From Candidatus Omnitrophota bacterium (GTDB taxonomy: Bacteria > Omnitrophota > Gorgyraeia > Zapsychrales > JANLHA01), in the NCBI GenBank assembly GCA_963662715.1, contig OY759724.1, positions 2,250,001 to 2,282,000 of the forward strand: a stretch of DNA of 32,000 nt, read 5' to 3'. The notes beneath the pieces were generated by a model that saw nothing but the letters and a program-made list of their open reading frames with translations, ran no database searches and was not told where the DNA came from. Below, piece after piece: positions 4,270-24,365 of the stretch (within the stretch, counting starts at the first letter, position 1; every line of letters starts with the position of its first letter). The position numbers were made by a program, and so were the translations under genes.

Positions 4270-4896
4270 ATGCATGTTTATGAACTAGCAGATGAATTAC
4301 ATATCAGTATAGAAGCTGTCCTGAAAAAGCTGAAATCTTTGAAGCTCAAGGCCAAGGACGGGGATCAGGTCCTCAATAAGGCTGTTATTATCGTTTTGCG
4401 CAGTGAACTTAAAAAGGATATGCAGGATCCCCAAAAGATGCAGCTCATGCAGAAGCAAAGGGCCCGGGAGAAAGAAAAGAAAAGTCTTGTTCGGAAATCC
4501 CCTGAGACAGCTGTCCCTGCGGAGGAACCCGCTTCGGACACAGAATCGAAGGCGGCTAAGAAGGGAACGACTGTCAAGAAAAAGACGGTTCGCGGCCGGA
4601 AGCCGGCGGCAAAAACCAAAGCAGAGGGGAATAAAGCCAAGGTCGCCAGCCCAGATAAGAAGGCACAAGCGAAACCGGAACCTGAACCAGAAGAGAAGCC
4701 GAAGAAAATTAAAACAAAAAAAATCGAAGCTCCTTTCGTCCCGCTTAAACCGTTGGCCAAAAAGAAACGTAAAACAGCCGGAGGAAAAACGGCCCGGGAT
4801 TCCTCCGATTCCAAGAGCTCTTCGGGGAGAAGACGATCTTCCTCCGATGCCTCCTTTGCCCCCGGCGAAGGAACAGACAATGACTCGCGTCGGTAA
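4270..4896 (+). CDS. IF-2 N-terminal domain plus Lys/Glu/Pro-rich linker ORF, detached from the infB core (either a frameshifted 5' part of infB or a genuinely separate ORF)
   Basis: It starts with an IF2_N-like segment (VYELADELHISIEAVLKKLKSL) followed by a low-complexity K/E/P/A linker of the kind seen in long IF-2 N-termini. It ends at TAA 4894-4896, 30 nt before the infB core ORF, which is in a different frame. Confidence 0.6.
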   Translation: MHVYELADELHISIEAVLKKLKSLKLKAKDGDQVLNKAVIIVLRSELKKDMQDPQKMQLMQKQRAREKEKKSLVRKSPETAVPAEEPASDTESKAAKKGTTVKKKTVRGRKPAAKTKAEGNKAKVASPDKKAQAKPEPEPEEKPKKIKTKKIEAPFVPLKPLAKKKRKTAGGKTARDSSDSKSSSGRRRSSSDASFAPGEGTDNDSRR

Positions 4897-13467: not shown

Positions 13468-14154
13468 ATGATTAATTTTGATGTCATCACGATTTTTCCG
13501 GAGATATTTGCGCCGGTCTTAAATGAGTCGATCATGAAGAGGGCGCAAGCCAAGAAAAAAGTGCGTATAAGGGTTCATGATTTAAGGGCGTATTCTCAGG
13601 ATAAACATAAAAAGGTTGACGACCGTCCTTTCGGCGGAGGGCCCGGGATGGTGATGACGCCGCAGCCCTTCTATGATGCCGTGAAAAAGGTTAAGGGCCG
13701 GCGTAAAGCTGAAGTCCTGTTAATGTGTCCGGGGGGAACTCCGTTCAGTCAAAGAAAAGCACGGCAGTTGGTTAAGCAAAGAAATATCATTATCCTTTGC
13801 GGTCACTATGAAGGTATTGATGAGCGTGTCCGCCAGACGGTCGTTGACGAAAGTCTATCTATCGGGGACTATATTTTGACCGGAGGAGAGCTGCCGGCCA
13901 TGATCGTTATCGATGCTGTCACGCGGCTTATCCCGGGAGTCCTGGGGAAGGAAGCCTCTTTGCAGGACGAGTCTTTTGAAAGAGGTCTTATCGAATATCC
14001 TCAATATACACGGCCGGCTGATTTCAGGGGGTTGAAAGTGCCTGATATCCTGCTGTCCGGGCATCACCGCCAGATCAGTCAATGGCGGCAGGCGCAGTCT
14101 TTAAAAAGAACGAAAAAGGTCCGTCCGGACCTTTTAAAAGATGAAGCCCCTTAA
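13468..14154 (+). CDS. trmD: tRNA (guanine37-N1)-methyltransferase TrmD
   Basis: [50 protein letters not shown] and LLSGHH are present. Confidence 0.95.
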
Positions 14155-14222
14155 CAGAAACCTTCCCGAGGCTGTTTGAACGGCTTAAGTTTGCTGAACC
14201 ACGGATTTATTTCGCAAATTAT

Positions 14223-15134
14223 ATGAACAGACGCATGGCCCAGAAAACAAAATCAGTTGATCATCAGGCCTGGAATGTGTCCCGGAGTCTTATGGACGTT
14301 GTGGATTATCTCCCGGACCCGTGTTTTGTCATTGACCGGGAAAAGAAAGTGATCGCCTGGAACCGGGGCATGGAACAGTTAACGGGCGTCCCCCGTCATC
14401 AGATGCTGGGAAAAGGGCAGTATGAATATGCGGTTCCTTTTTATGGCGAACGCCGGCCGATTCTCATTGATCTTGTCCTAGAAAGCCAGGAGGAGATTGA
14501 GCGGCAGTATCATATTGTTCAAAAGAGCCCGGGTGTTTTGGAGGCGGAAACAACGGCCGCGCGCATAAAAGGAAAAAATGTCTTTATCTGGGGCCGGGCC
14601 AGTATATTGCGCGACGCAAGGGGCCATATTGTCGGGGCGATAGAAACGATTCGTGATATTACCGATATTAAAAAAATAGAGGCGGCTCTTAAGGAATCGG
14701 AAGGGCGTTTATTGCAACAGAAATCAGCTTTAGAACAGAAAAATGTTGATTTGAAAGATATTCTCGAACAGGTTGAACAGGAAAAAAGAAAAATTAAAGA
14801 AGACGTGATGGATAATGTTGAGCATATTTTGCTCCCCTTGGTCAAGAAGATCAAGCTTAAAGGGGCATCTCAAAAGTATGCCAAATTGCTGCAGCAGGCC
14901 CTTGAACACATTACCTCGTCTTTCGGCAAAGAACTTTCCCGTCCGGTCTATGGCCTGACAAACCGGGAGATTGAAATTTGTCACATGATCAAAAACGGGT
15001 TGAGCGGCAAAGAAATAGCTGTTTTATTAAACCTGTCTTTTAACACTGTAGAGATGCACCGGAAGAATATTCGGCGTAAACTTGGCCTTTCTCATCAAAA
15101 GATTAATTTAATGACTTTTTTGCAGCAAGTGTAG
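14223..15134 (+). CDS. PAS-domain, coiled-coil, LuxR/GerE-type HTH transcriptional regulator
   Basis: The N-terminal PAS-like fold (FVIDREKKVIAWNRGMEQLTG...GAIETIRDITD) is followed by a heptad-rich linker. The C-terminal LTNREIEICHMIKNGLSGKEIAVLLNLSFNTVEMHRKNIRRKLG is a LuxR-family HTH. Confidence 0.8.
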   Translation: MNRRMAQKTKSVDHQAWNVSRSLMDVVDYLPDPCFVIDREKKVIAWNRGMEQLTGVPRHQMLGKGQYEYAVPFYGERRPILIDLVLESQEEIERQYHIVQKSPGVLEAETTAARIKGKNVFIWGRASILRDARGHIVGAIETIRDITDIKKIEAALKESEGRLLQQKSALEQKNVDLKDILEQVEQEKRKIKEDVMDNVEHILLPLVKKIKLKGASQKYAKLLQQALEHITSSFGKELSRPVYGLTNREIEICHMIKNGLSGKEIAVLLNLSFNTVEMHRKNIRRKLGLSHQKINLMTFLQQV

Positions 15135-15140
15135 GCCTTA

Positions 15141-15172
15141 TCAGTTATATTTACTAACCGAAATATAACTGA
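15141..15172 (+). terminator. Perfect 12-bp stem, 8-nt loop hairpin directly after the PAS-LuxR gene (possible intrinsic terminator or palindromic binding site)
   Basis: The sequence is TCAGTTATATTT-actaaccg-AAATATAACTGA followed by TTT. The stem is AT-rich and the T-tract is short, so terminator function is uncertain. Confidence 0.4.
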
Positions 15173-15191
15173 TTTACCCCTGTTGCAATAT

Positions 15192-15254
15192 CCTTTAAAT
15201 GCGGTATCCTGTATACTCAAAACGTGGAGTTTTTTTATCTGTCGCATTTAAAGG
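15192..15254. repeat. 12-bp perfect inverted repeat pair separated by 39 nt in the rex upstream region
   Basis: CCTTTAAATGCG (15192-15203) and CGCATTTAAAGG (15243-15254) are exact reverse complements. The right arm overlaps an AAAGGAGG Shine-Dalgarno-like string that has no credible ORF behind it. Confidence 0.5.
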
Positions 15255-15278
15255 AGGCGAATATTTTTTTGCGTTTTT

Positions 15279-15296
15279 ATGTGACGATTTTCACAA
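15279..15296. promoter_or_regulatory. Rex operator (ROP box) upstream of rex
   Basis: ATGTGACGATTTTCACAA matches the published Rex consensus TTGTGAA-N4-TTCACAA at 12 of 14 specified positions with the correct half-site spacing. It lies 17 nt upstream of the rex ATG. Confidence 0.7.
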
Positions 15297-15312
15297 AAAA
15301 TGAGACAATATA

Positions 15313-15969
15313 ATGAATTTACCGCAAAGAATATCAGGGGTTAATAAAAACAGTATCCCGCGTTTGGTTCAATATAGACACGTGCTCAAGAGAATATCAG
15401 ATTCCGGAAGAATACGGGTTTATTCAAACGATTTAGCGGAGGCGATCGGAATTACCGCAGCGCAAGTACGAAAGGATTTTTCGCTTTTCGGTATTATTGG
15501 TAAAAAAAGAGGCGGTTATGATGTCCACGATCTTCTGGTGGTTATTCAGAAAATTCTCGGTTTTCAGCAAGGACAGGATGTCGTTATCGTAGGCATGGGG
15601 CATTTAGGCACGGCGCTTAGCAATTATAAAGGTTTCGGGGAAGAGGGCATTTGTATCAAGGCTGGTTTTGATACGGATGCGGATAAATGCGGCACCCGGG
15701 GACATATCCCGGTGTATCCTTTCTCAGAGTGTCTTAAATATATTACGGACCATCATATTAAGGTGGGAATCATTGCCGTCCCTGCAGGAGCGGCTCAAAA
15801 GGTTCTGAATGTTATGTTGCTCGGAGGAATTGAGGGAGTCTTAAATTTTGCTCCGGTCCACCTGTTTGCCGACCAGCCCTGTGTGATTCATGATGTGAAT
15901 TTAATGGTGGAACTGGAATCTTTGCTGTATTTTGTCAACGCTTTAAATACCCGGGAGCACAATCCATGA
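15313..15969 (+). CDS. rex: Redox-sensing transcriptional repressor Rex
   Basis: An N-terminal winged helix (IPRLVQYRHVLKRI...SNDLAEAIGITAAQVRKDFS) is followed by the Rossmann motif VVIVGMGHLGTAL. The size (218 aa) is typical. Confidence 0.9.
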   Translation: MNLPQRISGVNKNSIPRLVQYRHVLKRISDSGRIRVYSNDLAEAIGITAAQVRKDFSLFGIIGKKRGGYDVHDLLVVIQKILGFQQGQDVVIVGMGHLGTALSNYKGFGEEGICIKAGFDTDADKCGTRGHIPVYPFSECLKYITDHHIKVGIIAVPAGAAQKVLNVMLLGGIEGVLNFAPVHLFADQPCVIHDVNLMVELESLLYFVNALNTREHNP

Positions 15970-17798
15970 ATATGATTATACGTCTGAGGACATATATTGT
16001 GTTGCTTTTACTGGCGTTGATTCTTTTTTGGGGCCTCTGCATGTCTTTGTACAGTTTCTTTGTGCTGAAGACTTTTATTATCGGTGAGGCGCAGAAAGAA
16101 GTTCAGCTAAAACTTAAAACGGTCCGGACGGTTTATCAGGATTATTTGAAGTCTATGGCTTTGAATTTCACTTTAATCGAGAAAGATGATGATATTCAGG
16201 CTTTAAAAAATAATTTGAAACTGGATTACCTTCGCTGGATTGCCCTTCCCGAAGCTTCCTCGTCATCCAGTGAAATCGTGCAAGCTGTTTTCCGTGAGGG
16301 CCGGGCCTTTGGAGCAACACGGGTGTTGTCGGCAGAGGAATTGGCGGCACAGCCGCAGGATTTTCTCATTCGGATTAGAGAAACCCCGAAAGCCCTCCAG
16401 TCTGACCGGAAGGTTTTAGATACCGCGTTGAGTCTTGAATATGTGCGGCCGTTTTTTGACGAACAGGGCCGGGTCGATAAAGTGCTTTGCGGGGGATGGA
16501 TTATTAATAAGAATTTTAACTTAATCGACCGGATCAAAAATTCAGTTTTCCGAAAGGAATTATACGAAGACAAACCGGTGGGAACAGTGACGATTTTTCA
16601 GGACGACGTCCGCGTCGCCACGAATGTTTTGGATAAAGAGGGACGCCGCGCGATCGGCACGCGGGTGTCTGCGGAAGTGTATCACAAAGTCATCGAAGAA
16701 AAAGGCACCTGGATTGACCGGGCTTTTGTTGTCACGGACTGGTATCTTACAGCGTATGAGCCGATCAAGGATATCCGGGGCAAGATTATCGGGATCCTTT
16801 ATGTCGGTATTTTGGAAAAACCTTTTCTTGCGATTCAGCAGCGGATGTTTTTAAGTCTTGTGACGATTATTCTTTTGACGGCATTGCCGACCCTGGGGGT
16901 CGCGTTTCTGCTGTCGAATGTCATGATCCGTCCCTTGACCGCTTTGGCGAAAAAAAGCAAAAAGATCGCCCAGGGAGATATGAAAACTTCGGTCAGCGTT
17001 GACTCTCTTATCAGGGAAATAAAGACACTGACCGTGACTTTTGATGATATGATCGAAAAACTTTCCGAACGGGAACAGACGCTCGCAGTCACCAATGACA
17101 AACTGGCGGTATTGAATAAACGTTATCTGGACCTGATCGGATTCGTGTCACATGAATTGAAAGGTATTTTATCGTCGATTGTGCTTAATACCTATTTGCT
17201 GCAAAAAGGCATCCCGGGGCCGGTAAACGCAAAGCAGCAACGGGTCTTAACGTCGATGGCCCGGAATCTGGACTACCTTGCCGTGACAGTTAAGAATTTT
17301 TTGAACCTCAGCCGCATTGAGAAAGATGAAATGCGGGTCGATAAACAGGATATCCTGTTCAAGGAGCATGTCCTGGACACCGCCCTGGATACGTTCCAAC
17401 AGCAAATTGAAGAAAAAAAGATGCGGATGGTCTGTGACGTTCCCGACAATCTGGTTATTCACGCTGATCCCGGACTTATGCAAATCGTCGTTAACAATTT
17501 GCTGAGCAATGCCTTAAAATACGGTAAGGAAGGCGGAGAAATCCGCATACGGGCGCAGGGCGGTGATAAAGGGGTGGAGGCTACAGTCTATAACGACGGA
17601 ATACCTATCGCCGAAGTCGACAGACAGAAGCTTTTTAAGAAATTTTCGCGCATCGTGTACCGGGGGATGGAAAAAGTCAAAGGGACTGGAATCGGGCTGT
17701 TTATCACGAAAGAAATTATTCAACGACACGGCGGGACTTTGACCGTAGAACCGGGGCTGGAAGGGAATCAGTTCCGGTTTACGATCCCTCCGGCATAA
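15966..17798 (+). CDS. Sensor histidine kinase with N-terminal TM, extracytoplasmic Cache-type sensor, second TM, HAMP, HisKA and HATPase_c domains
   Basis: Two hydrophobic segments bracket about 270 aa that carry Cache-like signatures (GTVTIFQDDVRVATNV, GTRVS, AYEPIKDIRGKIIGILYVG). The H-box is FVSHELKGIL, the N-box is NLLSNALKYG and the G-boxes include GTGIGLFITKEI. The start overlaps the rex stop (ATGA). Confidence 0.88.
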   Translation: MNMIIRLRTYIVLLLLALILFWGLCMSLYSFFVLKTFIIGEAQKEVQLKLKTVRTVYQDYLKSMALNFTLIEKDDDIQALKNNLKLDYLRWIALPEASSSSSEIVQAVFREGRAFGATRVLSAEELAAQPQDFLIRIRETPKALQSDRKVLDTALSLEYVRPFFDEQGRVDKVLCGGWIINKNFNLIDRIKNSVFRKELYEDKPVGTVTIFQDDVRVATNVLDKEGRRAIGTRVSAEVYHKVIEEKGTWIDRAFVVTDWYLTAYEPIKDIRGKIIGILYVGILEKPFLAIQQRMFLSLVTIILLTALPTLGVAFLLSNVMIRPLTALAKKSKKIAQGDMKTSVSVDSLIREIKTLTVTFDDMIEKLSEREQTLAVTNDKLAVLNKRYLDLIGFVSHELKGILSSIVLNTYLLQKGIPGPVNAKQQRVLTSMARNLDYLAVTVKNFLNLSRIEKDEMRVDKQDILFKEHVLDTALDTFQQQIEEKKMRMVCDVPDNLVIHADPGLMQIVVNNLLSNALKYGKEGGEIRIRAQGGDKGVEATVYNDGIPIAEVDRQKLFKKFSRIVYRGMEKVKGTGIGLFITKEIIQRHGGTLTVEPGLEGNQFRFTIPPA

Positions 17799-17819
17799 AA
17801 AACATGGATGAGGATTGTT

Positions 17820-18701
17820 ATGAAAAACAAAATTTTGCTTATTGATGACGATCAGGATTTTCTTGAAGCGACGACGTTGCTTTTAGATGCTAGCGGTTAC
17901 GAGGTGATCTCGGCGACAAACGGGCTGGAAGGGTTTAAGAAGGTCAAAAATGACTCTCCGGACCTTATCCTGCTGGACATGATGATGACCTATGAAACCG
18001 AAGGCGCAGAGACGGCCAAGGCTTTTGCCGAGGACGCGACGCTTCATGATATACCGGTGGTTATGATTACCGGAGCAAAGCGCGATAAAAGCTTTCCGGT
18101 GGAATTAAGGCCGGACCAGAAGAATTTGCCGGTAAAAATGGTGTTGGAAAAACCCGTGAACCCCGAGCGTCTGCTGAAAGTCGTGCAGATGTTTATCCGC
18201 CGTTCCGGCAATGAACACCGTCAGTTCGTAGGGGGGATTTCCGACATTGCTGCCAAATGGAAAGAGATGGACGGGAATCTTATTATGATCCTGCATGAAA
18301 TTCAGAACACGTACGGTTATGTCCCCCGGGATGTTTCCTTTGAATTGAGCCGTATCCTGGATGTGCCCCTGGCCCGGATTTATGAGGTGATCACTTTTTA
18401 TAATTATTTTAAGTTAGAGCCTCCGGGGAAACATATGATCTCCGTATGCATGGGGACGGCCTGTTATCTTAAGGGCGGGGCCGAGATCCTGGAGGAGCTG
18501 AAAAATGTCCTGCATGTCGAGGAAGGCGAAACAACAAAAGACGGGTTTTTCCTCGTGCAGTCTGTCCGCTGCCTGGGGTGTTGCGGACTGGCTCCGGTGA
18601 TGATGATTGACGAAAAGATATACGGGAAAGTTCAAAAGAAAGATATCGTCGATATCTTGTCACAATATACGAATAAGGCTGATGTTCCAGCAGAAAGGTA
18701 A
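17820..18701 (+). CDS. Response-regulator receiver domain fused to the NuoE-like [2Fe-2S] hydrogenase subunit (REC-HydC)
   Basis: The N-terminal REC domain carries IDDDQD, the phosphoacceptor context PDLILLDMMM, VMITG and EKP. The C-terminal half is NuoE/HydC (ILHEIQNTYGYVP, YEVITFYNYF) with the cluster ligands CMGTAC and CLGCCGLAP. GAGGA lies 5 nt upstream of ATG 17820; ATG 17808 is an alternative start. Confidence 0.85.
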   Translation: MKNKILLIDDDQDFLEATTLLLDASGYEVISATNGLEGFKKVKNDSPDLILLDMMMTYETEGAETAKAFAEDATLHDIPVVMITGAKRDKSFPVELRPDQKNLPVKMVLEKPVNPERLLKVVQMFIRRSGNEHRQFVGGISDIAAKWKEMDGNLIMILHEIQNTYGYVPRDVSFELSRILDVPLARIYEVITFYNYFKLEPPGKHMISVCMGTACYLKGGAEILEELKNVLHVEEGETTKDGFFLVQSVRCLGCCGLAPVMMIDEKIYGKVQKKDIVDILSQYTNKADVPAER

Positions 18702-18706
18702 ATGAT

Positions 18707-20506
18707 ATGAAATTTTCTGTCCGTTCTGCGGGTTTGCAAACCGCAAAGAACAAAAAAATAAACCGCATTGCCGTCGGCCTGAGTTCCTGCGGGATTGCCG
18801 CGGGAGCCAGAGAGGTGTTCCAGGCCCTGGAGCAAGAGGTTGCCTCGAAAGGTCTCGAGGTTTCTTTGACGCAATGCGGATGTGTCGGGATGTGTTATGC
18901 TGAACCGCTCATGGAAGTTTTTACCGCAGACGGTGCAAGCGTGTTATACGGGGGGGTCAATGCGGCGGCGGCCCGGGAGATTTTACAGAGGCATATTGTC
19001 GAAGCAAATCCCTCTCACGAGGCGATCAAAAAATATGTCATAGAAATTCCTTCTAAACAGGTGCGTATCGTTCTACGAAATTGCGGGGTGATCGATCCGG
19101 AAGATATCACGGATTATATGGATCACAACGGTTATGCCGCGATTAAGAAGATATTGAAAGATTATTCTCCCGATAAGGTTATTGAAGAATTGAAAATAAG
19201 CGGCTTGCGGGGGCGGGGAGGCGGCGGGTTCCCGACATGGATGAAATGGAATTTTGCCAGACAGGTCTCATCAGACCAGAAGTATGTTATCTGTAACGGC
19301 GATGAAGGCGATCCGGGTGCTTATATGGACCGTAGTGTTCTTGAGGGGGATCCGCATTCCGTTTTGGAAGGCATGATGATTGCCGGATATACCATCGGAG
19401 CCAGCAAGGGGTTTCTTTATATCCGGGCGGAATATCCCCTGGCGATTGAACGCATTAATAAAGCCATCGACCAGGCCCGGCAGAGCCATTTGCTGGGAGA
19501 GAACATTATGGGAACAGATTTTTCCTTTGATCTGGAAGTCCGTCTGGGCGCGGGAGCTTTTGTCTGCGGGGAAGAGACGGCGCTTATTGCTTCGATTGAG
19601 GGCAGACGGGGATGTCCGGTTCCCCGCCCTCCGTATCCGTCGGTCAAGGGGCTGTGGGGAAAACCGACCGTTATCAATAACGTTGAGACGCTGGCCAATA
19701 TTCCGGCTATTCTTGATCAGGGCGGGAACTGGTTTTCCTCCATCGGAACCGAACAGTCCAAAGGGACAAAGGTTTTCGCCCTGACCGGCAAAGTCAAGAA
19801 TACCGGTCTTATTGAAGTGCCTATGGGGACGACTTTGAGAGAAATTGTTTATGATATCGGCGGAGGAATTTTGAATGACAGGAAAATCAAGGCGGTGCAG
19901 ACCGGAGGTCCTTCGGGAGGCGTGATCCCGCAGGATTTCTTGGATACCCCGGTGGATTACGAAAATCTCCAAAAGCTTGGTTCCATTATGGGGTCCGGCG
20001 GGATGATCGTTATGGATGAAGATGACTGTATGATCGATATCGCGAAATTTTATTTGGGTTTTTGTGTCGATGAGTCCTGCGGGAAGTGCGCCCCTTGCCG
20101 CATCGGGGGCACACAGATGCTCAGGATACTTACAGAAATTTCTGAAGGAAAAGCTGACGAGGAAGATATCGCTAAGCTGCGCCAGCTTTCTTTGGCCATG
20201 CAGAAGGCCTCGCTTTGCGGGCTCGGCCAGACAGCCGCCAATCCTGTCTTATCGACTCTGAAGTATTTTAAAGACGAGTATGACCGTCATGTGCATGATA
20301 AAACCTGTCCGGCCGGTAAATGCCGGGGACTTTATCATTACGTTATATCCCAGGAGCGTTGCAAGCGCTGCGGGTTATGTTTGCGTCATTGTCCGACACA
20401 GGCGATCACGGGGAGCCGGGATGAGCCGTATTTGATTCACCAGGAAAAATGTATCCAATGCGGGCAGTGTTTTGAGGTTTGTAAATTTAAAGCGATTGAT
20501 CGATAA
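18707..20506 (+). CDS. hydB: NuoF-like NAD(P)H/FMN-binding subunit HydB of a multimeric (bifurcating-type) [FeFe] hydrogenase
   Basis: An N-terminal thioredoxin-like 2Fe-2S region (SSCGIAAGA...CGCVGMCYAEP) is followed by GLRGRGGGGFPT, the FMN/NADH motifs CNGDEGDPGAYMDR and GAGAFVCGEETAL, the 4Fe-4S motif ESCGKCAPCR...LCGLG, and a C-terminal 2x[4Fe-4S] ferredoxin (CKRCGLCLRHCP, CIQCGQCFEVC). Confidence 0.92.
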   Translation: MKFSVRSAGLQTAKNKKINRIAVGLSSCGIAAGAREVFQALEQEVASKGLEVSLTQCGCVGMCYAEPLMEVFTADGASVLYGGVNAAAAREILQRHIVEANPSHEAIKKYVIEIPSKQVRIVLRNCGVIDPEDITDYMDHNGYAAIKKILKDYSPDKVIEELKISGLRGRGGGGFPTWMKWNFARQVSSDQKYVICNGDEGDPGAYMDRSVLEGDPHSVLEGMMIAGYTIGASKGFLYIRAEYPLAIERINKAIDQARQSHLLGENIMGTDFSFDLEVRLGAGAFVCGEETALIASIEGRRGCPVPRPPYPSVKGLWGKPTVINNVETLANIPAILDQGGNWFSSIGTEQSKGTKVFALTGKVKNTGLIEVPMGTTLREIVYDIGGGILNDRKIKAVQTGGPSGGVIPQDFLDTPVDYENLQKLGSIMGSGGMIVMDEDDCMIDIAKFYLGFCVDESCGKCAPCRIGGTQMLRILTEISEGKADEEDIAKLRQLSLAMQKASLCGLGQTAANPVLSTLKYFKDEYDRHVHDKTCPAGKCRGLYHYVISQERCKRCGLCLRHCPTQAITGSRDEPYLIHQEKCIQCGQCFEVCKFKAIDR

Positions 20507-20522
20507 ACCTGAAACTTCAGGT
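20507..20522. repeat. 7-bp inverted repeat with 2-nt centre in the hydB-hydA spacer
   Basis: The sequence is ACCTGAA-AC-TTCAGGT, immediately after the hydB stop and upstream of the hydA GAAGGAG ribosome-binding site. Its function is unknown. Confidence 0.3.
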
Positions 20523-20535
20523 AGAAGGAGTTATT

Positions 20536-22281
20536 ATGGGAAAAGCAATTATTAACGATATTCCGGTTGAGTTTGATCCGGGGATGACAATCCTGGAGGC
20601 CGCCGAGAAAGTACAGGTTAAGATCCCGAGGTTATGCTATCATCCTGACGTCAAGCCGACGGCCGCCTGCGGTATTTGTATTGTCAAATTGAAGGGGTCA
20701 TCCAAGATGTTGCGGTCGTGTTGCACGCCTATTGAAGAAGGGATGGATATCATCACCCATGATCCGCAGATCGTCGCCGTGCGCCGCACGGTGGTTGAAA
20801 TGATCCTGTCCAATCATCCTAACGACTGTCTGACCTGCGGACGTAACAATAACTGTGAATTGCAGACGATCATGGCGGATTTCGGGATCCGGGAGGAAAC
20901 GTTTGATAAAATTGTCCGTGATCTGCCCAAAGATACCAGCACCGGCACCATCGTCTTGGAGCCGAGTAAATGTATTAAATGCGGGCGTTGTGTCACCGTC
21001 TGCCAGGAGACCCAGAACGTCTGGGCTTTATCGTTTTTAGAGCGGGGGGTCAACACCCGTTTTGCCCCGGCCGGGGATATTTCGCTCGGTGACTCGCCGT
21101 GTGTCCGGTGCGGACAATGTTCCGCTCATTGTCCGACCGGCGCCATATTTGAATATGACCAGACACCCCGGGTCTGGGATGCTCTGCAGGACCCGGATAA
21201 AATCTGCATCGTCCAGATTGCCCCTTCGGTTCGGGTGGCCCTGGGAGAAGGTTTTGGTTTCCCTCCCGGCACAAATCTGACAAAGAAAATTTATGCCCTC
21301 CTGCGGCGTATGGGCTTCCAGGCGGTCTTTGACACCAATTTTTCCGCGGATGTCACGATTATGGAAGAGGCGAGTGAATTTGTGGAAAGGTTTATTTACA
21401 AGAAAGGGCCTTTGCCGCTTATCACCACCTGTTGCCCGTCGTGGGTGGATTTTATGGAAAAATTCCAGACCGACATGATCGAGCATTTCTCTTCGGCCAA
21501 ATCGCCTCAGGCCATGCTGGGGGCCCTGGCTAAAACGTATTATCCGCAGAAGGAAGGCCTTGATGCGTCCAAGATTTTTATGGTCTCCATTATGCCGTGC
21601 ACGGCTAAAAAATATGAAATCAACCGCAGCGACGATATGTTCTCTTCCGGGTTTCAGGATACGGATATGGTTTTAACCACCCGGGAATTAATCCGTATGA
21701 TTAAGCAGATGGGGATTGATTTTAACGAGCTGCCGGAAGAAGAACCGGACCATTTGATGGGAGACTACTCCGGAGCCGGGGTGATTTTCGGGGCTACCGG
21801 CGGGGTGATGGAAGCGGCTTTGCGCACCGCCTATTATCTGGTGACCAAAGAGAATTTGAAAGATGTGAACTTCCGTAATGTCCGGGGGTTAAAAGGGGTG
21901 AAGGAAACCTCCGTGACCATTCACGGGACGGAAATCAGAATCGCCGTGGCTCATGGACTGGTTAATGTGGAATACGTTTTGCAGAAAGTTAGAACGGCCA
22001 AAGAGAACGGAGAGCCGCTCCCTTATCATTTTATTGAAGTTATGGCCTGCCCCGGGGGATGTGTCGGCGGCGGCGGTCAGCCGTATGGCGTTAATGATGA
22101 TGTGCGCAGGGCAAGAGCTCAGGGGTTGTATGAGGATGACGAGCAGAATACGGTGCGTTACAGCCATGAAAATCCCTATATTAAGACGCTGTATGCGGAG
22201 TTCCTGGAAGAGCCTTTGAGTGAGAAGGCTCACCATCTGCTGCACACCAAATATATTCCGAGGCCAGAATATAAAAAGTAA
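20536..22281 (+). CDS. hydA: [FeFe]-hydrogenase catalytic subunit HydA (N-terminal 2Fe-2S plus 4Fe-4S accessory clusters, H-cluster domain)
   Basis: All three H-cluster signatures are present: L1 TTCCPSW, L2 MPCTAKKYE and L3 EVMACPGGCVGGGGQP. The N-terminal NuoG-like region carries CYHP...CGICIV, HPNDCLTCGRNNNCELQ, CIKCGRCVTVC and CVRCGQCSAHCP. Confidence 0.95.
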   Translation: MGKAIINDIPVEFDPGMTILEAAEKVQVKIPRLCYHPDVKPTAACGICIVKLKGSSKMLRSCCTPIEEGMDIITHDPQIVAVRRTVVEMILSNHPNDCLTCGRNNNCELQTIMADFGIREETFDKIVRDLPKDTSTGTIVLEPSKCIKCGRCVTVCQETQNVWALSFLERGVNTRFAPAGDISLGDSPCVRCGQCSAHCPTGAIFEYDQTPRVWDALQDPDKICIVQIAPSVRVALGEGFGFPPGTNLTKKIYALLRRMGFQAVFDTNFSADVTIMEEASEFVERFIYKKGPLPLITTCCPSWVDFMEKFQTDMIEHFSSAKSPQAMLGALAKTYYPQKEGLDASKIFMVSIMPCTAKKYEINRSDDMFSSGFQDTDMVLTTRELIRMIKQMGIDFNELPEEEPDHLMGDYSGAGVIFGATGGVMEAALRTAYYLVTKENLKDVNFRNVRGLKGVKETSVTIHGTEIRIAVAHGLVNVEYVLQKVRTAKENGEPLPYHFIEVMACPGGCVGGGGQPYGVNDDVRRARAQGLYEDDEQNTVRYSHENPYIKTLYAEFLEEPLSEKAHHLLHTKYIPRPEYKK

Positions 22282-22300
22282 CCATAAGAAGGAGGGGGTA

Positions 22301-22684
22301 ATGACAAAGAAAATATTAATGGTGGATGATGATCAGGATTTTGCCCAGGCTGTAACCGATTTGGTCGAGACTCAAGGATACACGCTGGTGTATGCGATAA
22401 ACGGTGAGTCAGGTTTTCAGAAAGCAAAAGAGGACAAGCCGGACCTCATTCTTCTGGACGTTATGATGACCCATGAAACAGAAGGTTTTGATATTTCGCG
22501 CAAACTGCATGAAGAAGAAACGACGAAGAATATCCCTGTGATTGTGGTCACCGGAATCCGCAAGGAAACGGGGGTGCCGTTTAAGTATGAACCGGATGAA
22601 GTCTGGCTGCCGGTCAAGGCCGTGATTGAGAAGCCCATTGACCCGGAGAAATTTTTAAAAGTTATTGAAGAACAGCTGAAATAG
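22301..22684 (+). CDS. Stand-alone response-regulator receiver protein (no output domain), paralog of the REC domain of REC-HydC
   Basis: The motifs are MTKKILMVDDDQDF, PDLILLDVMMTHETEG, IPVIVVTG and LPVKAVIEKP. AAGGAGGGGG lies just upstream of ATG 22301; the ORF-track start at 22220 lies inside hydA. Confidence 0.88.
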   Translation: MTKKILMVDDDQDFAQAVTDLVETQGYTLVYAINGESGFQKAKEDKPDLILLDVMMTHETEGFDISRKLHEEETTKNIPVIVVTGIRKETGVPFKYEPDEVWLPVKAVIEKPIDPEKFLKVIEEQLK

Positions 22685-22806
22685 GCTAAAAGCCGCCTGT
22701 TTCGATATCTGTCAAAAGGACAAAGCCATGAAAGGGACACCGAAATCTTTAAGATTGCCGTTGAGGTTATTTGGCCGGACAAACGCCGGGAAGTCCAGTT
22801 GATGTC

Positions 22807-23802
22807 ATGAAACAACCGGATATTTATAAAATATTATCGGCTGAAGACCCCTTGCCGGAAATCCTGCACCGTGCAGACGCTGAACGCCAGCAACATTGCG
22901 GAGAGGATATCGTGATCCGGGGGCTTGTGGAGTTTTCCAGCCATTGTTGTTGGCAATGCCAGTACTGCGGGCTTCGGAAAGATAATTCTGACCTGGCCCG
23001 TTACCGGATGAGCTTGACAGAAATGATTGCCGCGTCACAGCAGGTTTTGGATGAGGGGATAGAAACAGTTGTTCTGCAGTCAGGGGATGATTTCGCGTTT
23101 ACGCGTGAAGACGTCGGGCTGGTTATCCGGTCGATAAAGAAAAGAATGCCGAATGTGGCGGTGACGCTTTGTCTCGGGGAACGTCCGCTGGATGATTATC
23201 AGTCTTTTTTTGACAGCGGCGCCGACCGTTATCTGCTGAAATTTGAAACAGCCAATCCTTTATTGTATCGTAAAATTCACCCTGGGCAGAATTTGATAAA
23301 ACGGCTTGCGCTGTTGGAACATCTCCGCAAGATCGGATACCAGGTCGGAACAGGCGACATTGTGGGGTTGCCGGGACAAACTATAGCGGATATTGTCCAG
23401 GATCTGGAATATTTGCGGGATTTTCAGCCGGAAATGATCGGTTTGGGACCTTTTATCCCTCAGCAGCAAACTCCTTTTGCGGACTATCCTGCGCCGCCTT
23501 CGGAATTGGTCTTAAAAGTTTTGGCCCTGGCCAGGATTTTTGTCCCTAACGCGCATGTCCCTGCCACAACAGCTTTGGCGACGCTGGGAGGCGATGATCT
23601 GCAGGCCCGGGCGCTGCAAGCGGGGGCTAATGTTCTGATGGTGAATTTTTCTCCCGGCGTGCATAAAGGGCTTTACCGTTTGTATGACAATAAGGCCAGC
23701 GTTGACTTCAGCACAGCGAAGAAAATTGCTGTTTCATTGAACCGGCCATTGTCTCTGGCGCGAAATGATGCCTTGTGCCGCATGGCCGGCCAGTCTTTTT
23801 AA
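22807..23802 (+). CDS. hydE: Radical-SAM [FeFe]-hydrogenase maturase HydE (BioB-like)
   Basis: The CX3CX2C motif occurs in the HydE context VEFSSHCCWQCQYCGLRKDN. A BioB/HydE-like TIM-barrel core is present (VVLQSGDD, TLCLGE, YLLKFET, GTGDIVGLPGQT). The gene sits in the hydrogenase operon. I chose ATG 22807; the track start at 22771 is a TTG. Confidence 0.75.
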   Translation: MKQPDIYKILSAEDPLPEILHRADAERQQHCGEDIVIRGLVEFSSHCCWQCQYCGLRKDNSDLARYRMSLTEMIAASQQVLDEGIETVVLQSGDDFAFTREDVGLVIRSIKKRMPNVAVTLCLGERPLDDYQSFFDSGADRYLLKFETANPLLYRKIHPGQNLIKRLALLEHLRKIGYQVGTGDIVGLPGQTIADIVQDLEYLRDFQPEMIGLGPFIPQQQTPFADYPAPPSELVLKVLALARIFVPNAHVPATTALATLGGDDLQARALQAGANVLMVNFSPGVHKGLYRLYDNKASVDFSTAKKIAVSLNRPLSLARNDALCRMAGQSF

Positions 23803-23862
23803 GCGCTTCTCCCGATACTGTGGAGAAAGCTTGTCAGGGTTGGTGTCTAAGTATTTTCTTGG

Positions 23863-23891
23863 TTGACAGGGGAGATGATTTAAGGTAAAAT
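23863..23891 (+). promoter_or_regulatory. Sigma70-type promoter for rplS
   Basis: TTGACA (23863-23868), an exact 17-nt spacer, then TAAAAT (23886-23891). This lies about 120 nt upstream of rplS. Confidence 0.65.
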
Positions 23892-23978
23892 TTCTCTTTA
23901 CTATTCTATTGTTTTATATCATGGGAACACAATAAGTTATTGATGCGTGGGAACGCACGGGAAGCCTGGTTGAATATC

Positions 23979-23996
23979 TGTCCTCCAGCGAGGACA
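23979..23996 (+). promoter_or_regulatory. Leader hairpin carrying a CCUCC anti-Shine-Dalgarno string just upstream of the rplS ribosome-binding site
   Basis: TGTCCTC-cagc-GAGGACA forms a 7-bp stem with a 4-nt loop and ends 4 nt before AAGGAGG (24001-24007). Its 5' arm CCTCC could alternatively pair with the SD sequence. Confidence 0.4.
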
Positions 23997-24014
23997 TTAT
24001 AAGGAGGGATGAAG

Positions 24015-24365
24015 GTGAATAAAGGAGAAATTATTGCTCAAATTGAAAAGAAATATTTAAGATCGGATCTGCCTAAGCTGGAAGTGGGAGATACGATCAA
24101 GATGCGGATAAAGGTCGTCGAAGCCGATAAGGAACGCATTCATCCTTTCGAAGGTTTTATTATCCGCAAGACAGGCAGAGGGTTAAAAGGGACGTTTACT
24201 GTCCGTAAGATTTCTTATGGCGAAGGGATCGAAAGGACATTTCCCATCCATTCCCCGGTCATTGAAAGTATTAAGGTCATAGCTAAAGGCGACGTACGGA
24301 GAGCAAAATTATACTACCTCCGTGACCGTATCGGTAAGAAAGCGCGAGTGAAAAAGAAAGTATAA
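24015..24365 (+). CDS. rplS: 50S ribosomal protein L19
   Basis: GDTIKMRIKVVEADKERIHPFEGFIIRK, FTVRKISYGEGIERTFPIHSP and RRAKLYYLRDRIGKKARV are present. GTG 24015 lies 7 nt after GGAGG, whereas the ORF-track ATG at 24009 is only 1 nt from the SD sequence. Confidence 0.93.
   Translation: MNKGEIIAQIEKKYLRSDLPKLEVGDTIKMRIKVVEADKERIHPFEGFIIRKTGRGLKGTFTVRKISYGEGIERTFPIHSPVIESIKVIAKGDVRRAKLYYLRDRIGKKARVKKKV

Follow-up and report, generated by a model that had tools for sequence, protein, structure and literature searches.

A receiver domain (REC) of the two-component type is joined to the N-terminus of HydC, the [2Fe-2S] subunit of an [FeFe] hydrogenase, in a 32-kb stretch of the genome of a Candidatus Omnitrophota bacterium (GenBank assembly GCA_963662715.1, contig OY759724.1, positions 2,250,001 to 2,282,000), the whole of which is hereafter referred to as the window. 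The fusion gene, REC::hydC, is the third of seven open reading frames (ORFs), all on the plus strand, that run from rex to hydE and also encode a membrane sensor histidine kinase, HydB, HydA and a free single-domain receiver (REC2). Together with the related loci, this arrangement leads us to read the hydABC operon as encoding an [FeFe] hydrogenase of the electron-bifurcating type that is controlled at two levels, by Rex acting on transcription and by receiver phosphorylation acting on the protein, a reading to which we give about even chances. It suggests an enzyme that is switched directly by phosphorylation and not only via gene expression. Residue numbers given below are those of the window proteins, and L and P numbers denote related loci and related proteins, respectively.

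The fusion protein and its homologues

The product of REC::hydC is 293 aa long, and the Pfam scan of the 17820-18701 product confirms the two domains that a preliminary description of this DNA, made from the letters alone, had assigned to it: Response_reg, which covers residues 5-122 and scores 62.9 bits (cutoff 30.2), and 2Fe-2S_thioredx, which covers residues 141-283 and scores 164.9 bits (cutoff 24.8). The receiver (approximately nt 17832-18185) is followed by a helical linker and by the NuoE-like [2Fe-2S] domain (approximately nt 18240-18668). Although the ORF opens at 17808, a start at the ATG at 17820 is favoured because a GAGGA Shine-Dalgarno sequence lies 6 nt upstream and the homologues have MKNK N-termini. 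The closest solved structures of the HydC half (residues 138-285) are the HydC/BfuC chains 7t2r_C, 8a6t_C, 7q4v_C and 7p5h_C, to which it aligns over the full length with E-values of 1e-31 to 1e-38, and REC::hydC is the only NuoE-like gene of the operon. The identification of the fusion protein as the structural HydC of a bifurcating-type HydABC is strongly supported by these sequence comparisons. The same three subunits make up the HydABC/BfuABC complexes of Thermotoga maritima, Acetobacterium woodii and Thermoanaerobacter kivui (7P5H, 7Q4V, 8A6T), the gene order in the window being hydC-hydB-hydA; the window locus differs from these in having a histidine kinase gene directly upstream, and its HydC in having an additional N-terminal stretch of ~135 residues, made up of the receiver and the helical linker, which is present in none of the solved HydC chains.

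A search of 5.8 billion proteins, with the homologues clustered at 90% identity, yielded at least 120 clusters of the fusion. Both Pfam domains are present in every one of the best 120 clusters, which are 274-317 aa long, 52-100% identical to the window fusion and derived from NCBI, ENA, JGI and Logan assemblies; those with a named source are almost all from Omnitrophota, and the homologues are labelled in the databases as "NAD(P)H-dependent oxidoreductase subunit E" or "response regulator". The acidic pocket (D9 in 117/120, D10 in 108/120 and D11 in 113/120), the phosphoacceptor position D53 (109/120), T84 (112/120) and K111 (120/120) are conserved among them, as are the four [2Fe-2S] ligands C210, C215, C251 and C255 (120/120), so that each of the receiver and cysteine positions read in the preliminary description is present and retained in at least 108 of the 120 homologues. 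In the remaining clusters D53 is replaced by His (6), Asn (3) or Glu (2).

The chance that REC and hydC are separate genes joined only through a sequencing error or misassembly near 18180-18260, the possibility on which the preliminary description had made the fusion depend, is negligible. Separate REC and hydC gene pairs do occur in some relatives; the reading frame of the window gene is unbroken, however, and at least 120 clusters from four data sources likewise have both domains in one ORF, joined by a linker that can be aligned. An assembly or frameshift artefact was accordingly rejected.

Of the 80 best HydC loci in species-representative genomes, 15 are fused and about 60 encode a plain HydC, with ~55-73% identity to the query HydC region (tblastn) and with hydB and hydA downstream. 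The receiver is thus an accessory on an otherwise ordinary HydC, since about 60 of these 80 loci combine a plain HydC with the same hydB and hydA.

Association of the fused receiver with the histidine kinase

The kinase encoded upstream of REC::hydC has a predicted first transmembrane helix (residues ~8-35), an extracytoplasmic loop of ~260 aa that carries the sCache_3_3 domain (Pfam match 1e-34) and a second transmembrane helix (~294-320), followed by HAMP; its H-box, SHELKG, contains His396. A homologous kinase gene lies directly upstream of the fusion gene in 13 of the 15 fused loci, and D53, T/S84 and K111 are intact in all 14 instances constituted by the window and these 13 loci. The two loci of the 15 that are devoid of the kinase carry D53E (L007) and D9V/D10N (L014). 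The kinase is likewise not adjacent to the fusion gene in three loci that were picked for their replaced D53, namely L088 (P0117, D53N), L089 (P0042, D53E) and L090 (P0109, D53H); the site is therefore mutated in 5/5 fused loci without an adjacent kinase, with at least three or four different substitutions among them. Among the ~60 unfused loci, a homologous kinase is encoded directly upstream of hydC in L070 and L017 only.

In L017, a 71-aa ORF (1837-2052) lies between the full-length homologous kinase and the unfused hydC. At its C-terminus it corresponds to the beta5-alpha5 end of a receiver (VLEKPLKPSSLLKIVEKLF), and in its middle part it is similar to the HydB N-terminus (GMSTCEIAAGSKVV); it has the look of a REC that has decayed or been rearranged.

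The sensor domain of the kinase is more variable than its pairing with the fusion. In the Omnitrophota clade of L010-L012, a soluble HisKA/HATPase core of 230 aa, devoid of a sensor domain, directly precedes REC::hydC, and the phosphorylation site is intact. A 113-aa protein with a CPVC motif is encoded ahead of this kinase core, the region concerned being 8949-9979 in L010 with counterparts in L011 and L012, and may provide a cytoplasmic redox input in place of the Cache sensor. The constant pairing thus appears to be that of the kinase core with REC::HydC, the Cache domain being the commonest sensor and not the sole one. The extracytoplasmic Cache input proposed earlier therefore stands for the window kinase, which carries sCache_3_3, and does not extend to the family as a whole. 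The further proposal that the kinase is wired to the fused receiver gains from the way in which kinase adjacency tracks the intact phosphorylation site, and also from the split-gene forms and the independent fusions described below; on sequence grounds, the adjacent kinase is well supported as the cognate partner of REC::HydC.

Predicted structure of the receivers

The AlphaFold2 (AF2) monomer model of the fusion has a predicted local distance difference test score (pLDDT) of 81.5 and a predicted template modelling score (pTM) of 0.54. Strands beta1-5 and helices alpha1-3 and alpha5 of the fused receiver are present in the model; alpha4 is absent, residues 85-106 forming an extended segment of lower confidence, and alpha5 runs as a single helix (115-147) into the helical bundle of HydC. 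Receivers usually have their output face at alpha4-beta5-alpha5, and in the fusion, as modelled, this face is remodelled, conserved and rigidly joined to HydC. A Foldseek search with the fusion model matched the two domains separately only.

The AF2 model of REC2 (pLDDT 92.2) has a short helix at residues 86-90 in place of alpha4. Its best structural match is RR468 of T. maritima (TM-score 0.84, 35% identity), with DivK also among the top matches. In overall predicted fold the window receivers resemble RR468, which is paired with the HisKA kinase HK853 in T. maritima, and Caulobacter DivK; the phosphorylation site (D-D-D...D...T...K) is intact, and a HisKA/HATPase kinase is encoded beside them. 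They differ from RR468 and DivK in that alpha4 is largely exchanged for a conserved extended segment and in that one of them is covalently joined to an iron-sulphur (Fe-S) subunit.

Hydrogenase type and predicted transcriptional control

Schut et al. 2022 (PMC9304861) define the BfuABC family by a BfuB with Nuo51 flavin mononucleotide (FMN), SLBB, NuoF 4Fe-4S and ferredoxin-type 4Fe-4S domains, a BfuC with a NuoE domain, and a BfuA with ferredoxin domains of the 2Fe-2S and 4Fe-4S kinds. The Pfam counterparts of this whole set occur in HydB, HydC and HydA of the window. HydB (599 aa), the FMN/NADH-binding subunit, which in addition to the domains listed in Table 1 has a weak N-terminal match to a thioredoxin-like [2Fe-2S] domain, aligns end to end with the BfuB subunits 8oh5_B, 7t2r_B, 7q4v_B and 7p5h_B, its N-terminal [2Fe-2S] and C-terminal 2x[4Fe-4S] domains included. 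The features of a bifurcating HydB given by Losey et al. 2020 (PMC7311640) are Ala/Glu...Met at the NADH site, Phe and not Tyr near FMN, and GGPSG in SLBB; their counterparts in the window protein, mapped by motif and not by T. maritima numbering, are GAYMDR (A-x-M), GAGAFVCGEE (Phe) and GGPSG. HydA, the catalytic subunit, scores 794 bits with NCBIfam FeFe_hydrog_A6 (NF040763; cutoff 765), which places it in group A6, and HydE 307.6 bits with the equivalog TIGR03956 (cutoff 254.6). The assignment of HydABC to the bifurcating type, as in the preliminary description, is supported by the HydB motifs and the BfuABC domain set.

In most relatives (including L088-L090), the N-terminal [2Fe-2S] domain of HydB is encoded by a separate gene for 113-116 aa between hydC and hydB, and in the window it is joined into the single 599-aa HydB. 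A HydS-type group C [FeFe] hydrogenase is not encoded in the locus, the only H-cluster protein being the group A HydA; the PAS protein encoded at 14223-15134 has a LuxR helix-turn-helix and no hydrogenase domain in the Pfam scan.

The product of rex, a redox-sensing (NADH/NAD+) repressor of transcription, scores 211 bits with the Rex equivalog NF003996 (cutoff 138). The sequence TGTGA-N6-TCACA has a single exact match in the window, as against none in 100 shuffles, and 14 related loci carry the same Rex core a short distance upstream of rex or hydC. Conventional redox-responsive transcriptional control of the operon is predicted, since the putative Rex box lies upstream of rex. The earlier suggestion that neither receiver has a DNA-binding output agrees with the Pfam scan, in which both the fused REC and REC2 are devoid of any DNA-binding domain. 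Its corollary, that control is exerted post-translationally rather than on transcription, needs correcting in one respect, in that the predicted Rex operator upstream of rex points to transcriptional control as well.

Free receivers and related modules in other lineages

REC2 (Response_reg, 62.3 bits against the cutoff of 30.2) is 49% identical to the fused receiver over 123 residues aligned free of gaps, and the two are paralogues; D9, D10, D11, D53 and K111 are invariant in 44 members of the REC2 family. The NCBIfam DVU0259/DivK family (NF045717) does not include either of them, the scores of the fused REC (62 bits) and REC2 (80.6 bits) lying below the cutoff of 160. REC2 is missing from about half of the kinase-bearing fused loci.

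Split forms also occur. In L020, L032 and L033, hydC is a gene of its own, with a gene for a 127-aa REC immediately upstream, and a second, different cluster, in which rex, REC, nuoE-like, hydB and hydA are separate genes, is found in L005, L009 and L010. This second [FeFe] cluster, with a short hydB (407 aa) and a long hydA (653 aa), is located immediately upstream of several fused loci (L005 3147-7778, L009 and L010), which thus carry two REC-associated hydrogenases in tandem. In a neighbour-joining tree, the fused RECs of Omnitrophota form one clade nested among free RECs that adjoin hydrogenase genes, and the fused and free receivers share the unusual alpha4 region, for which the consensus of the free RECs is EPDExWLPVKxVLEKP.

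Close relatives of REC2 (52-56% identical) are in 4/4 cases encoded beside hydrogenase or maturase genes or beside a homologous kinase. The genes concerned are hydB, hydA, hydG, nuoE-like, hydE, REC and hydF in a Planctomycetes locus (L081); rex, an sCache_3_3 kinase, nuoE-like, hydB-gltD, hydA and three successive REC genes in Lentisphaerae (L082); a radical-SAM gene, hydF and REC in WOR-3 (L083); and a radical-SAM gene, three REC genes, an sCache_3_3 kinase and a further REC in Acidobacteriota (L084). The kinases of L082 and L084 are 33% and 39% identical to the window kinase, the alignment being nearly full length for the former and running from residue 162 onwards for the latter, with the Cache region covered in both. 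A putative module of kinase and free REC beside [FeFe] hydrogenase genes therefore spans several phyla.

Independent fusions of receivers to NuoE

When 1.8 billion cluster representatives were searched exhaustively with HMMER, further REC::NuoE fusions at 27-37% identity emerged. These include the P0341 family, which belongs to Thermodesulfovibrionales, and the metagenomic proteins P0248, P0257, P0259 and P0262. Their domain order is that of the window protein and a NuoF/HydB-like gene follows; their receivers differ from that of the window in being canonical, NtrC-like domains with a normal alpha4. In the tree these receivers fall outside the Omnitrophota clade, and an independent origin of the NtrC-like fusions is indicated by this position together with the canonical receiver type. 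The fusion of two unrelated receivers to the same kind of subunit points to the NuoE-like subunit as the regulated target.

One of these loci, L086, on an unassigned metagenome contig, encodes an sCache_3_3 kinase homologous to the window kinase, a sigma54 regulator, a REC-REC protein, REC::NuoE, HydB and a hydA-like product. Another fusion, P0262 (L087 8001-9737), is a tandem REC-NuoE-REC-NuoE protein of 578 aa located in a formate-dehydrogenase-type cluster; downstream come a NuoF-like gene and one for a molybdopterin subunit of the formate-dehydrogenase type, and upstream three REC-AraC regulators. The Cys motifs are apparently missing from its first NuoE copy.

Proposed mechanism and alternative explanations

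In the proposed mechanism, Rex bound to its TGTGA-N6-TCACA operator would tie transcription of the operon to the NADH/NAD+ ratio. At the protein level, the sCache_3_3 domain of the kinase would sense an extracytoplasmic ligand, leading to autophosphorylation on His396, and the phosphoryl group would be passed to Asp53 of the HydC receiver and probably to REC2 as well. We infer that phosphorylation of Asp53 alters the hydrogenase itself. It may shift the position or mobility of the [2Fe-2S] domain of HydC, or drive REC-REC or REC-HydB contacts, and such a change in HydC would be expected because a conserved loop takes the place of alpha4 and alpha5 is continuous into HydC. As a result, electron flow via the NADH/FMN/C1 site of HydABC would be switched on or off, and REC2 would act on the same target in trans or serve as a competing phosphate sink.

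The cryo-electron microscopy (cryo-EM) work describes the C1 cluster of HydC as important in bifurcation and the HydB-HydC lobes as peripheral in the complex, and one model proposes that BfuC's C-terminal domain, by moving, gates between the low- and mid-potential branches. It is reasonable to regard HydC as a plausible control point. A more specific version, in which phosphorylation of the HydC receiver directly gates flavin-based bifurcation by holding back or setting free the mobile [2Fe-2S] (C1) domain, which current structural models regard as the switch between these branches, and in which this principle evolved at least twice, for Bfu-type hydrogenases and for formate dehydrogenases, is put forward tentatively and is in our estimate rather doubtful. 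If true, an environmental signal could within seconds move the enzyme from one state to another, such as H2 evolution and standby, or coupled and uncoupled operation.

Several observations weigh against control by phosphorylation of the fused receiver. The G1 box of the window kinase is atypical (NDGIPI as against DxGxG), and the AF2 monomer, with its pTM of 0.54, leaves the orientation of REC relative to HydC undefined. The exact 2x2 probability of the association between kinase adjacency and an intact site (14/14 versus 0/5) is 1/11628, a figure that overstates the independence of the loci, since three of the five kinase-less loci were chosen for their mutated site and the loci are related to one another. 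The absence of the kinase was scored for adjacent genes, and these genomes may encode a kinase elsewhere. Fused receivers with a dead phosphorylation site are retained where no kinase adjoins, which implies that part of the role of the receiver is independent of phosphorylation. Many related Omnitrophota have the same hydrogenase without REC or kinase, which makes the phosphorylation layer an accessory one. A further point concerns the free receivers: a free REC of 46% identity to REC2 is encoded in L091 (9001-9393) and L092 beside a six-gene cluster for an Nqr/Rnf-type NADH:quinone oxidoreductase, another NADH-linked redox complex. An exclusive linkage of the free-REC subfamily to hydrogenases was rejected on account of this relative, though the link to the Nqr/Rnf-type cluster may be due to chance.

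The retention of receivers with D53E/N/H or a degenerate acidic pocket in loci without an adjacent kinase is also what would be seen if the receiver were mainly a structural, assembly or localisation module, serving for oligomerisation or as a tether to the membrane kinase, with phosphorylation secondary or dispensable. The conservation of K111 and the REC fold in 120/120 clusters is in line with such a role, and the conserved non-helical segment in the alpha4 region could be a fixed docking surface. We consider this explanation unlikely, since the presence of D53 in 109/120 clusters and in all kinase-bearing loci argues for selection on phosphorylation, a change of Asp to Glu may mimic the phosphorylated state and need not abolish signalling, and the closest unfused HydC proteins work without REC. 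Somewhat less likely still is a flow of information in the reverse direction, in which the redox or turnover state of HydC modulates the phosphate on the fused receiver, so that the hydrogenase is an input or a sink and REC2 the real output. A second, free receiver of the same subfamily is indeed present in the locus, a kinase of the same family is accompanied by as many as three or four free RECs in related loci, an arrangement like that of sink or branched pathways, and the occurrence of a sigma54-type regulator, REC-REC and REC::NuoE after a kinase of this family in L086 shows that branched outputs exist. REC2, however, cannot be an obligatory output, being missing from about half of the kinase-bearing fused loci, and the independent fusions of another receiver type to NuoE are more simply explained with NuoE as the regulated target.

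It is also conceivable that the two-component system acts on transcription through a DNA-binding partner, for instance phosphorylated REC2 acting on Rex or on the PAS-LuxR regulator encoded just upstream, and that the fused receiver is a bystander. The latter regulator lacks a receiver of its own, and Rex with its operator belongs to the locus. Whether the PAS-LuxR gene is a member of the system is uncertain, as its position is conserved, among the related loci compared, only in the closest relative, L001 (metagenome-assembled genome JAKQKX01). The kinase, moreover, co-varies with the phosphorylation site of the fused receiver and not with REC2, and the recurrence of REC::NuoE fusions would be left unexplained; we therefore regard a purely transcriptional route as improbable. 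Direct control of the hydrogenase by phosphorylation of the HydC receiver, in addition to transcriptional control by Rex, remains the preferred reading.

Organisation of the locus

The features of the locus and its flanks are listed in Table 1. The spacers from rex to hydE are -4, 21, 5, 29 and 19 nt, followed by 86 or 122 nt depending on the start codon of hydE, the first being a 4-nt overlap between the rex stop codon and the start of the kinase gene. They match the values from which an operon-like packing from rex to hydE had been proposed, and promoter and terminator scans gave no signal exceeding background inside the operon.

Table 1. Positions in the window of the genes and the predicted operator of the hydrogenase locus, with the flanking genes
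Feature	Position	Strand	Remarks
trmD	13468-14154	+	5' flank of the block
PAS-LuxR (GerE) regulator gene	14223-15134	+	Pfam PAS_4 and GerE; upstream of rex
Rex operator core TGTGA-N6-TCACA (predicted)	15280-15295	+	Ends 17 nt before the rex start codon
rex	15313-15969	+	Pfam Put_DNA-bind_N and CoA_binding; NCBIfam Rex equivalog NF003996
Membrane sensor histidine kinase gene	15966-17798	+	Pfam sCache_3_3, HAMP, HisKA and HATPase_c
REC::hydC fusion	17820-18701	+	Pfam Response_reg and 2Fe-2S_thioredx
hydB	18707-20506	+	Pfam Complex1_51K, SLBB, NADH_4Fe-4S and two Fer4
hydA	20536-22281	+	Pfam Fe_hyd_lg_C, Fe_hyd_SSU, Fer2_4, NADH-G_4Fe-4S_3 and Fer4
REC2 (free single-domain receiver)	22301-22684	+	Pfam Response_reg only
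hydE (radical-SAM H-cluster maturase)	22771 (TTG) or 22807 (ATG) to 23802	+	NCBIfam TIGR03956; Pfam Radical_SAM
rplS	24009-24365	+	3' flank of the block

The block from the PAS-LuxR gene to hydE, ~9.8 kb in length, lies between trmD and rplS (13468-24365), which in many bacteria are neighbours in one ribosomal-protein operon. The maturase genes hydF and hydG are not found among the genes of the window. All called genes of the window are on the plus strand, and the GC skew is positive throughout its length. For a 208-aa ORF at 4270-4896, flanked by nusA and infB, Pfam gave no match at E <= 1e-5.

Comparison with known systems and implications

A receiver-NuoE/HydC fusion, or two-component control of HydABC, is not described in the searchable literature, outside which most subscription journals lie. 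A "BfuD" reported for an Omnitrophota genome (PMC11406978) was considered as a possible REC, and the text of that paper does not say so. In the hydrogenase reviews and structural papers covered by the search, the regulation of [FeFe] hydrogenases is treated solely through HydS-type sensory hydrogenases, and two-component control goes unmentioned; group C HydS proteins with PAS or kinase domains are encoded beside hydABC in Ruminococcus, Thermoanaerobacterium and Hydrogenedentota. The HydS systems resemble the window locus in that signal-transduction proteins are encoded with a bifurcating hydrogenase, and differ from it in that the signalling domain of the window is a receiver on the working enzyme and its sensor a Cache kinase rather than an H-cluster protein. 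The view of the preliminary description that the architecture is uncharacterised thus holds for the literature that could be searched; the architecture is by no means rare, with at least 120 clusters in the family and the wider module present in several phyla.

The response regulators CheB, PleD/WspR and RpfG have enzymatic rather than DNA-binding outputs. As in these proteins, an N-terminal receiver is followed in the fusion by an effector that does not bind DNA, which implies control at the protein level; unlike theirs, the effector of the window protein is no enzyme in its own right, being the [2Fe-2S] subunit in a redox complex of several subunits. Receivers with enzymatic outputs are thus known, and a receiver on the Fe-S subunit of a bifurcating redox complex is not described in the literature searched.

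The presence of a receiver on HydC would be the first sign that a two-component system targets an electron-bifurcating enzyme directly. Competing models of bifurcation give HydC and its C1 cluster a central place, and a phosphorylation switch at this position would constitute a built-in perturbation with which gating by HydC movement could be tested. Being common in Omnitrophota and present again in further uncultured anaerobic lineages, the module may shape the control of H2 release in sediments and groundwater.

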